DNA from: an uncultured bacterium
GTDB taxonomy: Bacteria; Sysuimicrobiota; Sysuimicrobiia; Sysuimicrobiales; Sysuimicrobiaceae
Length of the DNA stretch: 64,000 nucleotides
Direction: 5' to 3'
Assembly: GCA_964437095.1 (NCBI GenBank)
Contig: CAYTFH010000001.1
Span: 119,072 to 183,071 of the forward strand
Shown: positions 4,250-6,410 of the stretch, in pieces
How the letters are laid out: each line of letters opens with the position of its first letter
Numbering within the stretch: the first letter of the stretch is position 1
Translations under genes and position numbers: made by a program
Notes under the pieces: generated by a model
The model's input: only the letters and a program-made list of their open reading frames with translations
Told to the model about the DNA's origin: nothing
Database searches by the model: none

Positions 4250-5095
4250 TCACCACAGGGCTTCCACCGGGCCCCGCTCCGGGTCTCCGAGCCGGGGGTT
4301 GGCGCGGACCCACTGCTCCGCACAGCCCGCGCCGCAGAACAGGTTGTTCACCCCGCAGCCTCCGCCCCGCACGTGCCACACGCCGGTCGGTTCGGCGCCC
4401 ACCAGCCTCCCGTCCGTCACGATCAGGCGGATCCGCCGCATGCACTGGGCACAGGCGTCGTACAGGTGGACGGTTCCCCGGTCGTAGGTCCGCCGGAAGA
4501 GGTCTTCGGGCCGCAGGCTCGCCAGGAACGCGAGCATCTTCGGGGTCATGCCGGGCGCGTCCGGGGCACCGCGCGAAGGCCTCTGGAGGCGCCTGGCCCG
4601 GTAGGTGGGGCTTGTGAGCAGCGCGAAGTCGTGGAAGCAGTTCATGTTGAACCGCTCCTTTCCGGCTACCACCTCGTGGAAGTAGAACCCTACGCCCTCC
4701 AGGAACCGCGGCGCTTCCGGGCTTAGGTGCACGTGGCTCCTGTCCCGCTCCAGGAACCCGATCCAGATCAGGGCGTCGAGGGCGGCCCGGATCCCCGCTT
4801 CCGGGAGCAAGAGGGTCTCCGAGACCCCACGGGCGAGGCGATCCTCCTCCGCCGAGCCCTGCAGGGTTCGGAGCACCCCGCGGGCCACGAGGCGCTCGTC
4901 GTTGGTGAGGAAGTAGGCCGAGGGGTGCCACCGCAGGAGGTCCGCCAGGCGAGGGTCTTCCAGGATCGCCCGGGCGATCCGGCGACGGTCGGCGTCCCGG
5001 AACGGGAGCCCCGCACGGTCCATCGCCTGCTCGAGGTTCGTGCACCGGAAGGGCTCCTGCCAGTCCGCCTCCAGGATCCGCAGCACCGCCTCCAT
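4250..5095 (-). CDS. hypothetical protein; possibly organomercurial-lyase (MerB)-like plus a C-terminal Cys cluster
   Basis: NCFHD (Cys-x2-Asp) and DACAQC about 61 aa later mirror the MerB Cys96/Asp99/Cys159 spacing. C-terminal CGVNNLFCGAGC. Weak homology, start uncertain (ATG 5095 or GTG 5122). Confidence 0.35.
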   Translation of the reverse strand: MEAVLRILEADWQEPFRCTNLEQAMDRAGLPFRDADRRRIARAILEDPRLADLLRWHPSAYFLTNDERLVARGVLRTLQGSAEEDRLARGVSETLLLPEAGIRAALDALIWIGFLERDRSHVHLSPEAPRFLEGVGFYFHEVVAGKERFNMNCFHDFALLTSPTYRARRLQRPSRGAPDAPGMTPKMLAFLASLRPEDLFRRTYDRGTVHLYDACAQCMRRIRLIVTDGRLVGAEPTGVWHVRGGGCGVNNLFCGAGCAEQWVRANPRLGDPERGPVEALW

Positions 5096-5106
5096 ACCCA
5101 CGCCCC

Positions 5107-5295
5107 TTAGCAGAAGGGACACCCGCCCCGGCGGGCTACGGCGGTTCCTTCCTCGGTGCCCGCCTCGGGGACATCCGCTTCAGGGGTCGCAGGCTCGCTC
5201 GACCCCGCCCGGGCGGCGAGGAGGAGGGCCAGGAGCTTCCCCCCGCAGCACAGCGCGATCACCCCCACGATCCCCAAACTGGTAAGCCAGTCCAT
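5107..5295 (-). CDS. small membrane protein with vicinal Cys pair in its TM helix and C-terminal CPFC (MerT/MerF-like?)
   Basis: Strong SD GGAGGTGAGAACG + ATG. MDWLTSLGIVGVIALCCGGKLLALLL...GGCPFC. Confidence 0.4.
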   Translation of the reverse strand: MDWLTSLGIVGVIALCCGGKLLALLLAARAGSSEPATPEADVPEAGTEEGTAVARRGGCPFC

Positions 5296-5309
5296 CGTTC
5301 TCACCTCCC

Positions 5310-6410
5310 CTAGCCCGCGCAGCAGCTCAGCTTGCTCACGTCCTTCTGGAACGTCTGCGCCGCCAGCTTCAGCCCCTCCACGAGGGTCAGGTAGGGGAAG
5401 ACGAGCTGCGCGAGGCGCTGGGCCGTGTACCCCTCCCGGATGGCCAGGACCGCCGTCTGGATAGCCTCCCCGGCCTCGGCCGCCAGGATGGACGCACCCA
5501 ACAGCCGGTCTGTCCTGCGGTCCGCCACGAGCTTGATGAGGCCCCGCAGGTCCCGGGCGACCTAGGCGCGGGGCACGTGCTCCAAGGCCAGGAGCGCGGT
5601 CTTCACCTCGAAGCCGCGCTCGCGCGCCTGGGCCTCCGTCCACCCGGCACTGGCCACCTGCGGGTCCGTGAAGGTGATCCTGGGGAGGGCTTCCAGGTCC
5701 ACCCTCCGGTGGTTGCCATTGAGGGCGTTCTCGGCGGCCACCGTGCCCATGTGGGCGGCTACGTACACGAACATGGGGTCGCCCGTGCAGTCGCCCGCCG
5801 CGTAGATGTCCGGGTTCGTGGTCTGGGCGTACTCGTTCACCCGGATCTCCCCCTTGGGCCCCAGCTCCACCCCTACCTCCTCCAGCCCGAGGCCCGCCAT
5901 GCGGGCGCGCCGCCCCGTGGCCACCAGGAGCTGCTCGGCCTCCACCACCTCTTCGTCCTGCCCTTCGGTGAACGTCACGCGGTAGCGGCCGAGGACGCGC
6001 TCCACCCGGGTGATCCGCACGCCCGGCCGCACCCCCATCCCCTCGGCCTCCAGGTAGCCCCGCAACGCCTCCCCCACCTCCGGCTCCTCCATGGGCACAA
6101 TCCGCGGGAAAGCCTCCAGGACCGTGACGTAGCTACCGGCGCGCAGGTACACCTGCGCCAACTCCAGCCCCACGGCGCTGGCCCCGATGACCACCAGGGA
6201 CCGTGGCAGTTCCCGGAGCGAGAGGGCGTGGTCGCTGGTGAGGAATTTGGCTTCGTGCAGCCCCGGGATCGGGGGTGCCCAAGGCCGGGCGCCCGTGGCC
6301 ACGATCACCTTGCGAGGTCGGAAGACGGACCCGTTCACGGACACCCCGCCGCCCGGCGTCAGCCGCGCCTGGCCCTGGAGGTACCGGATCTCGGGGTACG
6401 CCTGCAGTAA
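5310..6410 (-). pseudogene. merA: mercuric reductase merA remnant: 5'-truncated, internal amber codon
   Basis: C-terminus ...[31 protein letters not shown] is the MerA hallmark. In-frame TAG at 5562-5564 ([16 protein letters not shown]). Homology ends at a TAA at 6411-6413, so the FAD/redox-disulfide N-terminus is absent. Confidence 0.6.

Follow-up and report, generated by a model that had tools for sequence, protein, structure and literature searches.

A probable recent merA pseudogene beside intact mercury-linked genes in a locally decaying neighbourhood of a Sysuimicrobiota-like genome

The closest described counterparts of the locus analysed here are the mer genes. Mercuric reductases (MerA) of the Tn501/Tn21 type carry an N-terminal NmerA (HMA) domain, and within the MerA family flavoprotein disulfide-reductase chemistry is impossible without the FAD-binding GxGxxG motif and the redox-active CxxxxC. 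MerB and MerB2 (PF03243; PDB 3F0O, 1S6L and 5C17) have about 212 aa, a Cys-Asp-Cys triad (C96, D99 and C159 in MerB) and a structural Cys117, while MerT, MerF and MerE have two to three membrane helices, with a CC pair in the first helix and a second, cytoplasmic Cys pair. Mer operons regulated by ArsR-family proteins are known in Actinobacteria, for example in Streptomyces lividans. A divergent branch of MerB is represented by SaoL, a MerB-like selenoprotein with a CU dipeptide, found in the nine-gene SAO locus of anaerobes (Haft & Gwadz 2022, bioRxiv 10.1101/2022.07.06.499078).

The 64-kb stretch of DNA analysed here (the window) belongs to a host close to Candidatus Sysuimicrobium and bacterium HR32; the Sysuimicrobiota paper PMC11604079 leaves mercury, merA and pseudogenes unmentioned. 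The window contains a truncated merA, described by the following features:

5310..6410, minus strand: merA pseudogene, codons 185-550 of a 550-aa mercuric reductase (TIGR02053 and alignment to contig L001)
5562-5564, minus strand: amber TAG inside the merA remnant, read directly, splitting the ORF into pieces of 260 aa and 72 aa
6404..6410, no strand: junction of a 1773-bp deletion (base-level reading of the alignment to contig L083)
6411..6466, no strand: intergenic DNA kept from between the sigma gene and the lost p79-GH130-merA unit, in line with L083:2331-2388 and holding the TAA that ends the merA homology

The remnant retains the NADPH-binding part of the Pyr_redox_2 region, the dimerisation domain and the C-terminal vicinal Cys pair, the latter as SCCAG in the translation of 5310-6500 (minus strand). 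The NCBIfam MerA model TIGR02053 matched it over profile positions 97-465 of 465 (E=6.7e-127, 424.3 bits), a score that falls below the curated cutoff of 454.45 only because the protein is truncated. The closest intact homologue is the 550-aa MerA P0001 of L001, residues 185-550 of which align to window positions 6410-5313 with 93.7% amino acid identity. Homology stops at 6407-6410, with TAA at 6411-6413 just upstream. Residues 1-184 of the L001 protein hold the HMA motif GMTCDAC, the FAD site GGGSAG and the redox-active disulfide GGTCVNVGCVPSK, and tblastn with these residues found no HMA domain, FAD-binding GxGxxG or CxxxxC of MerA in the whole 64-kb window. When the merA 5′ end or the GH130 gene was sought elsewhere in the window, tblastn gave noise and one unrelated Rossmann-type match (56041-56187). 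These searches covered 64 kb of the genome, and a second, intact merA may lie elsewhere in it. Compared with Tn501/Tn21-type MerA, the remnant shares the profile match, the SCCAG end and 94% identity to an intact HMA-bearing MerA, but its HMA domain, FAD site and CxxxxC are missing and it carries an amber stop, so it is a pseudogene and not an enzyme.

These results bear out the initial annotation, made from the letters alone, in describing a merA remnant with an intact C-terminal Cys pair and no N-terminal catalytic region. The in-frame TAG that it reported is also present, but not at a Leu position as it had proposed: at this site the codon of close relatives is CAG (L004) or CAA (L001), both for Gln, or one for Arg, so the amber codon lies one C>T step from CAG. 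The frame of the remnant is therefore not the uninterrupted one of a MerA. Since the N-terminal catalytic region is lost and an amber stop is present, merA cannot work here, and Hg(II) reduction from this gene is impossible as judged from its sequence; in this sense the description of the locus as the relic of a mer operon stands. The dN/dS of the remnant against L001 was 0.135 (366 codons), a low value that would mainly reflect divergence before inactivation and suggests that the inactivation was recent.

The missing part of merA was located by comparison with L083, which is 95% identical to the window in the sigma region and in which the sigma gene is divergent from p79, GH130 and merA. L083:1-553 aligns to window 5855-6407 and L083:2327-3329 to window 6406-7394, and L083:554-2326 is absent. 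These 1773 bp comprise merA codons 1-184, the GH130 gene and almost the whole of p79, a 79-aa Cys-rich ORF that has no Pfam or NCBIfam match. At the junction, GCCTG is joined to CAGTAATTATGC, with microhomology of 1-2 bp at most; the boundary as read at the merA/sigma join is GCCTG followed by CAGTAATT, and the sequence spanning it is GCCTGCAGTAATTATGC. A consensus scan found no sigma-70 promoter in 6411-6466 nor in the L083 counterpart. Promoter loss through the deletion was considered and rejected, as a hand-picked TTGCAT-17-TATGAT in L083 fails the scan and none was found in the window.

The ancestral order consists of the sigma gene and, divergently from it, the small Cys-rich p79, GH130, merA, a small membrane ORF (62 aa) and a MerB-like gene (281 aa). 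L001 has the order GH130, merA, MerB-like gene and OsmC/DsrE/DUF6789, collinear with the window. The MerB-like gene follows merA in L001, L004, L005, L006 and L007, and adjoins it on the opposite strand in L008.

On the other side of the junction lies a sigma-factor operon, and a zwf gene is found further along:

6467..7307, plus strand: pseudogene of an ECF sigma factor with a fused C-terminal zf-HC2 domain (anti-sigma-type), reading through three frames
7422..8438, plus strand: mem338, an intact 338-aa Cys-free, Met-rich membrane protein of unassigned family, with 94% identity, full-length and in one frame, to a 339-aa protein of L084
8560..9970, plus strand: membrane protein (469 aa in L084) with its N-terminus out of frame, residues 1-31 in frame 1 and 49-469 in frame 2
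9991..10498, plus strand: disrupted SPW-repeat/DUF3106 protein, with an internal deletion of about 270 nt and a frame change
14184..15790, minus strand: zwf (glucose-6-phosphate dehydrogenase), split by a -1 frameshift at about 15300

Against the intact 284-aa sigma orthologues (P0126 of L083, and L084), which carry Sigma70_r2, r4_2 and zf-HC2 domains, the window copy is not in one open frame: it has -1 lesions at about 6766 and 6933 and a 12-bp in-frame deletion at about 7131. The gene of the 469-aa membrane protein shows a -1 lesion at about 8703 and a -7 lesion at about 8722 relative to L084. In the disrupted SPW-repeat gene, frame 1 gives residues 1-33 of the 253-aa L084 protein and frame 2 gives residues 126-252, and Pfam SPW and DUF3106 were found on the intact orthologue; mem338 gave no Pfam match. 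For zwf, the single ORFs of L003 and L005 gave two HSPs in different frames, and pieces of 138 aa and 332 aa, both G6PD, are present in the Logan contig L085. The sigma operon and zwf hold at least seven further disruptive lesions. Within 10 kb, five genes together carry about nine inactivating lesions, and intact genes lie beside them.

The concentration of these lesions points to relaxed selection on the neighbourhood. In the lineage of the window, one illegitimate 1773-bp deletion removed p79, GH130 and merA codons 1-184, a CAG>TAG mutation additionally truncated the remaining merA, and the 62-aa and 281-aa genes stayed complete ORFs. We propose that selection has been relaxed on the whole mercury/thiol-stress neighbourhood and that its genes are decaying together. 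We assign a probability of about 0.82 to this reading, in which merA is a true recent pseudogene made by deletion and nonsense mutation amid a jointly decaying neighbourhood. It is an ordinary pseudogene set within an unusual local cluster of decay.

Given that the window comes from a metagenome-assembled genome, the merA/sigma junction could instead be a chimeric join of the assembler or binner, with the stop and the frameshifts as consensus errors and the real operon intact. Logan contigs of SRR11582147 end at window position 4777 and start again at 6418, 11-14 bp from the junction, a break that fits an ambiguity in the assembly graph or an accompanying strain whose locus is intact. No junction-spanning contig was found in other assemblies: exact-protein look-ups of P0022, P0121 and the 62-aa and 281-aa ORFs gave none, and JGI metagenome contigs contained neither the junction nor the TAG as an exact 30-mer. 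Each of the three -1 frameshifts with a base-level alignment, two of them in the sigma gene and one in zwf, is a single G lost beside other Gs, which could hint at systematic error. Against this, the Logan contigs L085 and L002, produced by an independent assembler, are 100% identical to window 6418-16267 (9850 bp) and 2776-4777 (2002 bp), and the match covers the frameshifts of both the sigma gene and zwf. Logan and NCBI each record exact copies of the 260-aa and 72-aa pieces of merA and of the 102-aa and 106-aa pieces of the sigma gene, and the 260-aa ORF is bounded by the TAG and has no upstream extension, whereas an intact upstream merA would give a longer or edge-truncated gene call. For DsrE, sigma-102 and mem338 alike, the identical protein occurs on two further contigs of 20-50 kb, and both flanks of the deletion are collinear with one relative contig (L083), as a deletion gives and a random chimera does not. 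Window-wide frameshifting from a noisy assembly was also rejected: among a limited number of ORFs inspected by eye elsewhere in the window, at 18.5-32.4 kb and 60-63 kb, 12 suspect pairs that adjoin or overlap proved to be separate, intact genes for normal full-length proteins (thioredoxin-like, rhodanese, TauE, CobA, SirC, sulfite reductases, ATP sulfurylase, FNT and MurE/MurF), which points to local and not window-wide decay. We consider an artefact of this kind very unlikely.

The initial annotation had ascribed the truncation to the acquisition or rearrangement of the sigma/repeat-protein block, in which case an insertion, or an inversion or rearrangement breakpoint, would have cut merA and left its 5′ end on the block's opposite side or at another place in the genome. 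Over greater evolutionary distances the neighbourhood is indeed rearranged, as the orientation of mem338 (directly upstream of merA on the same strand in L005, on the opposite strand in the window) and the position of the ArsR gene vary among relatives. However, L083 already has the same sigma gene divergent from p79-GH130-merA and differs at the boundary only by a clean 1773-bp gap, which contradicts both the proposed cause and a breakpoint at the sigma block. Since the window equals the gene order of the relatives minus exactly 1773 bp, the sigma block is an original neighbour and not an insertion. An inversion model built on the mem338 and ArsR orientations in L003, L005 and L006 was ruled out by the same layout. 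Neither the merA 5′ end nor GH130 lies in the 64 kb, and the layout is explained without a transposase or integrase. This makes a rearrangement extremely improbable. Continued use of the remnant in a new, non-reductase role, as a truncated protein from an internal GTG at 6344 or by stop read-through or recoding, is scarcely credible: the low dN/dS, the callable 260-aa ORF and the apparent selenocysteine recoding in a nearby OsmC-like gene speak for it, but the merA stop is TAG and not the TGA of selenocysteine, the remnant has neither GxGxxG nor CxxxxC, the dN/dS is explained mainly by earlier divergence, and the genes beside it are visibly decaying.

Two intact genes lie downstream of the merA remnant, and an intact regulator lies beyond the sigma operon:

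5107..5295, minus strand: intact 62-aa protein, a candidate for Hg(II) handling, with LCCGG in its one membrane helix and CPFC at its C-terminus
4250..5095, minus strand: intact, divergent MerB-superfamily protein of 281 aa (AlphaFold2 model, Foldseek and extended-family profile)
10542..10955, minus strand: intact ArsR/SmtB metalloregulator (10542-10949 scores 89.1 bits with NF033788, above the cutoff of 55; E=1.2e-25)

An ORF like that of the 62-aa protein separates merA from the MerB-like gene in L001, L004, L005, L006 and L007, and the L006 copy shifts its reading frame midway. All six copies, that of the window included, have LCC(G/A) in the helix, and five of the six end with a C-terminal CxxC or CC, the L007 copy ending in PCR. 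Sequence inspection indicates a single hydrophobic stretch at residues ~5-28, followed by a polar linker. Like MerT, MerF and MerE, the 62-aa protein has a CC pair in its first membrane helix (ALCCGG), a second Cys pair, cytoplasmic in those proteins, and a position in a mer cluster; unlike them, it has one predicted helix, a length of only 59-63 aa and an unconserved linker. The MerT, MerF, MerE and MerC models of Pfam and NCBIfam matched none of five orthologues even at E<=10, and the 62-aa protein found no other family in these two collections. The likeness to MerT/MerF suggested at the outset is thus retained for the two Cys pairs and lost for the assignment to a transporter profile.

The MerB-like ORF starts with ATG at 5095 and encodes 281 aa, corrected from 290 aa, with a wHTH-like N-terminus and a MerB core carrying a ~45-aa insertion. 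Its AlphaFold2 model (pLDDT 87, pTM 0.85) was searched against the PDB with Foldseek, and ranks 1-11 were all MerB or MerB2 (E 3e-6 to 1e-4, probability 1.00); TM-scores were only 0.29-0.45, so that the domain arrangement and insertions differ from MerB. A profile of the extended family matched MerB2 at E=4e-11 and MerB at E=3.4e-6 and aligned C153, D156 and C247 to C96, D99 and C159 of MerB. The motifs NCFHDF (C153, D156) and GGGC (C247) do not vary among 15 orthologues and align to WCALD and SFC(C) of MerB/MerB2 in the PDB, and the window protein retains all family-invariant residues. Directly, PF03243 gave only E=0.021 (15.3 bits, below the gathering score of 27) and the NCBIfam models gave no match at E<=0.01, but 24 of 32 relatives from the family-profile search match PF03243, with a best E of 1.5e-12. 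The fold, the triad, the structural Cys117 position and the gene's place beside merA are common to this protein and MerB/MerB2. It differs from MerB in its ~13-15% identity, its length, the insertion, which lies between C-x2-D and the next Cys, and the extra invariant C18, C218, C254 and C258. The MerB-like assignment made earlier therefore survives through the fold search and the extended family, and not through the direct profiles; by this modelled-fold and transitive profile evidence, the 281-aa protein is a real but divergent member of the MerB superfamily. The family is rare, with 94 matches among 1.84 billion representatives. It resembles SaoL in being a divergent MerB branch in which a TGA codon stands at the position aligned to MerB Cys159, in SaoL itself and in relatives of the window protein. 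In contrast to the CU of SaoL, the motif is GGG-C in the window (GGG-U in relatives), the neighbours are merA, HMA and redoxin genes, and the window protein itself has Cys.

Gene decay of this kind is ordinary, and it adjoins two unusual mercury-linked genes that are still intact. The loss of a resistance gene by one deletion and one nonsense mutation, well documented here in an uncultivated hot-spring lineage, carries little weight alone. As a natural experiment, the clustering of lesions suggests a functional tie of the ECF sigma operon and zwf to mercury detoxification. Two candidate new components of organomercury handling also emerge, the 62-aa CC-motif protein and a clade of the MerB superfamily that is rare and divergent, and the linkage of each to merA is consistent. 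A bolder proposal, which we regard as unlikely, is that the ECF-sigma/zf-HC2 operon (with mem338, the 469-aa protein and the SPW/DUF3106 protein), zwf, merA, the 62-aa gene and the MerB-like gene form one undescribed mercury/thiol-stress regulon of Sysuimicrobiota-like bacteria, sensed via the Cys-rich zf-HC2, and that the 281-aa family is a functional organomercurial lyase, of a new subtype whose relatives have selenocysteine at the catalytic position. If true, a single regulon, in which zwf would produce NADPH, would explain the joint collapse of these genes and not of their neighbours.

The ArsR/SmtB protein is likely, from its sequence and gene position, the regulator of the mer genes in the window's lineage. 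In L006 its orthologue and merA are immediate divergent neighbours, and in L003, L004 and L005 it is found upstream of merA at a distance of a few kb. As in the ArsR-type mer operons of Actinobacteria, the merA-linked regulator of the relatives is of the ArsR/SmtB and not the MerR family; it differs from them in that the window regulator is 4 kb from the merA remnant, beyond the sigma operon.

As a separate observation, a look for tRNA-Sec found no tRNA genes in the window, and the host appears, from a nearby OsmC-like gene, to use selenocysteine recoding.

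In the window (G+C about 70%), the mercury-resistance locus and the neighbouring genes discussed here are arranged as follows:

4250–5095, MerB-like ORF of 281 aa; the ATG at 5095 is its real start codon, in line with the 281-aa orthologue on Logan contig L001
5107–5295, small CC-motif membrane ORF of 62 aa, intact
5310–6410, minus strand, merA remnant; translation begins LLQAYPEIRY, with an in-frame TAG at 5562–5564 and a TAA at 6411–6413 just upstream
6467–7307, plus strand, ECF sigma factor with a fused zf-HC2 domain, a pseudogene
7422–8438, plus strand, Met-rich membrane protein of 338 aa

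The merA remnant matches the C-terminal two-thirds of Pyr_redox_2 and the dimerisation domain in Pfam, and covers positions 97–465 of 465 in the NCBIfam MerA model TIGR02053 (E = 6.7e-127); its 424.3 bits fall below the cutoff of 454.45 bits only because the N-terminus is missing. A database search returned about 20 full-length MerA proteins 80–94% identical to it, as well as P0022, the window's own 260-aa merA fragment. The full-length proteins are mostly 540–600 aa long, the majority carry an HMA domain, and their sources are hot-spring-type metagenomes, bacterium HR32 and Armatimonadota-labelled MAGs. Among species-representative genomes, the nearest were those of Candidatus Sysuimicrobium calidum and bacterium HR32 (83% each). 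The best intact homologue is the 550-aa P0001 on L001, whose residues 185–550 align with window 6410–5313 at 93.7% identity and whose residues 1–184 carry GMTCDAC (HMA), GGGSAG (FAD) and GGTCVNVGCVPSK (redox-active disulfide). No counterpart of residues 1–184 was found anywhere in the 64-kb window, which confirms the initial annotation of a merA remnant lacking the N-terminal catalytic region.

L001 is collinear with the window through a DUF6789 gene, DsrE, two small ORFs, the MerB-like gene and merA, the homology ending at window 6407; a GH130 gene lies upstream of merA in L001, and the window has none. The cluster to which the sigma fragments belong led to P0126, the intact 284-aa version of the window sigma factor. 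On its contig, Logan L083, merA (-) is followed by GH130 (-) and a 79-aa Cys-rich ORF (-), and then by the divergent sigma gene (+). Window 5855–6407 aligns with L083:1–553 and window 6406–7394 with L083:2327–3329, so that L083:554–2326, exactly 1773 bp, is missing from the window; the junction reads GCCTG/CAGTAATTATGC, with microhomology of 1–2 bp at most. L083 is collinear on both flanks of the missing 1773 bp, and the sigma block is thus the ancestral neighbour of the merA unit. One illegitimate deletion took the merA 5′ end together with GH130 and the 79-aa ORF. The proposal that merA was cut when the sigma block was acquired or rearranged is thus unsupported, as L083 already has the divergent sigma gene and the window differs by the 1773-bp loss; the observation holds and its mechanism is corrected. 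The 79-aa ORF (L083 2100–2339, -) is the first gene of its unit with GH130 and merA. In its product a CGCCGG cysteine cluster precedes a strongly acidic/basic tail rich in Glu, Lys and Gln; a family assignment gave no match. A GH130 glycoside hydrolase within a mer cluster is odd.

At the amber codon the window reads GCC TAG GTC, and L004, the HR32 contig, reads GCT CAG GTC. Close relatives have Gln (CAG in L004, CAA in L001) or Arg at this position, not the Leu claimed at first; by codon comparison, TAG is one C>T step from CAG. Selenocysteine recoding of the merA stop is ruled out, the codon being TAG; the window organism appears to use such recoding elsewhere. Between the remnant and L001 there are 70 synonymous and 30 non-synonymous differences, a Nei-Gojobori dN/dS of 0.135. 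Most of the divergence therefore accumulated under purifying selection, and inactivation is probably recent.

Two Logan contigs of run SRR11582147 are 100% identical to the window, L085 over 6418–16267 (9850 bp) and L002 over 2776–4777 (2002 bp). Logan and NCBI both record exact copies of the two merA pieces (260 and 72 aa), of the 62-aa and 281-aa proteins and of two sigma pieces (102 and 106 aa), and the exact DsrE, 102-aa sigma and 338-aa proteins each occur on two further contigs of 20–50 kb. Exact-protein look-ups retrieved no contig physically spanning the merA/sigma junction, and the junction and TAG 30-mers are absent from JGI metagenomes. The Logan contig break at 6418 falls in a run of more than 31 bases that is identical between the window and undeleted relatives, and the co-occurrence of a relative whose locus is intact is sufficient to explain it. 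We consider it very unlikely that the lesions and junction are an artefact.

That a resistance gene is lost through a deletion plus a nonsense mutation is ordinary; less ordinary are the local clustering of lesions and a rare MerB clade. The sigma gene passes through three reading frames in the window. Relative to L083 and L084, a single G is missing at both ~6766 and ~6933, and 12 bp are deleted in frame at ~7131 between ACCTGGAC direct repeats. Compared with L084, the 338-aa protein is intact, a 469-aa membrane-protein gene has -1 and -7 changes near codon 45, and an SPW/DUF3106 protein has lost ~270 nt and changed frame. Further along, zwf is broken by a -1 at ~15300. The 7-bp deletion in the 469-aa membrane-protein gene (~8722) lies between GGTGGCG repeats, and both it and the 12-bp deletion are typical of replication slippage. 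The three base-level-aligned -1 frameshifts (~6766, ~6933 and ~15300) each lost one G beside another G (GAGGGAGAA>GAGGGAAA; GCGGAG>GCGAG; CTGGAG>CTGAG, the last inferred from translation), which could be mutational bias or systematic read error.

In total, the stretch from 5.3 to 15.4 kb has about nine disruptive events, spread over five genes, and two genes were lost outright. The 338-aa protein, an ArsR regulator, MoeA-MobB, MobA, pgl and gnd are intact amid this decay, and twelve further ORFs elsewhere in the window were normal by inspection. In relatives L003 and L005, merA forms one cluster with the ArsR regulator, gnd, zwf and the 338-aa homologue. The genes decaying in the window are thus ones that accompany merA in other species; we infer that selection has been relaxed on a neighbourhood of functionally linked genes. 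In these contigs (L003 691–7405, L005 216–7394) the ArsR regulator and gnd-zwf point away from each other, and the 338-aa homologue and merA come after gnd-zwf, so NADPH-generating pentose-phosphate genes cluster with an NADPH-dependent mercuric reductase in two related species.

Synonymous divergence from L001 across 2793–6410 is uneven: 0.28 for merA and 0.27 for the MerB-like gene, against 0.09 for DsrE, 0.09 and 0 for two OsmC halves and 0.07 for DUF6789. The 62-aa ORF region gave no blastn alignment to L001, and its protein is 69% identical to the HR32 copy. The unevenness suggests that the mer segment has a separate history, exchanged by recombination between lineages.

The components of the locus are of known types: MerA with NmerA, a relative of MerB, a metalloregulator of the ArsR type and a small membrane protein with a CC motif. 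The MerB-like gene follows merA in L001, L004, L005, L006 and L007, and in L008 (an Acidobacteriota MAG) a homologue of 25% identity adjoins merA on the opposite strand. Searched directly, the 281-aa protein reached only E = 0.021 with Pfam MerB and had no NCBIfam match, and a 15-orthologue profile placed MerB2 first in the PDB, yet at E = 0.046. Its MerB likeness was borne out by structure and extended family instead. The AlphaFold2 model is confident (pLDDT 87, pTM 0.85), and MerB or MerB2 fills its first 11 Foldseek ranks in the PDB, with E from 3e-6 to 1e-4 and TM-scores of 0.29–0.45. An exhaustive HMM search found only 94 relatives in 1.84 billion representatives; 24 of 32 sampled matched Pfam MerB (best E = 1.5e-12), and the extended-family profile matched MerB2 (E = 4e-11) and MerB (E = 3.4e-6), aligning CxxD with MerB C96/D99, the next Cys with C117 and GGG-C with C159. 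All family-invariant residues are kept in the window protein, seven cysteines included, and its dN/dS against L001 is 0.44. The protein is a divergent member of the MerB superfamily and carries a ~45-aa insertion.

Fifteen of the 32 extended-family representatives (alignment A2) stop exactly at RGGG, corresponding to window Cys247 and MerB Cys159. In L086 (6001–6948, +) the codon at this position is TGA, the frame goes on into a conserved NNLFRSEEH..W motif, and 16 nt downstream there is a small CUCUUCC-GGUC-GGAAGA hairpin. The RGGG-ending relatives are probably unannotated selenoproteins. Such variants have a precedent in SaoL, a selenoprotein that resembles MerB (Haft & Gwadz 2022); SaoL has a CU motif, whereas these relatives have GGG-U, and their neighbours (HMA, redoxin, ArsR, HTH_15) also differ.

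Five relatives have a comparable small ORF between merA and the MerB-like gene. The LCC(G/A) helix is retained in every copy, and a CxxC or CC at the C-terminus in most. No transporter profile matched the window 62-aa protein or four orthologues, and the proposed MerT/MerF likeness is confined to motifs. In L006 (11080–11340) the ORF seems to switch frame midway, with the N-terminal helix in one frame and a C-terminal STPCC in another, and may be damaged there too. A second, divergent merA-like flavoprotein paralogue (33–45% identity; L005 7450–8085, L006 12227–13348 and L007 1874–2728, all -) is convergent to the MerB-like gene and is absent from the equivalent site in the window and L001.

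The window ORFs at 3727–3948 and 4015–4239 (+) are one OsmC-family gene, 3727–4239, with an in-frame TGA at 3946–3948. Its halves are ~73 and 74 aa, listed by gene callers as separate 68-aa and 74-aa genes, and the same split occurs in L001 and L002. Pfam OsmC runs across the TGA (residues 56–158, E = 2.7e-12). Because the TGA sits at the catalytic-Cys position (YFVAGVAF-U-ILTQL) and a hairpin, CUCUCGCG-GUG-CGCGAGAG, starts 15 nt downstream, this gene likely encodes a selenoprotein with a bacterial SECIS. The 469-aa protein encoded at 1347–2756 (-) combines a DUF7482 domain (E = 5e-81) with a TAT signal; since an N-terminal extension with C2H2-like CCGREF…HDVEAH…CCGVQF…H motifs precedes the TAT signal, its start codon may be mis-set.
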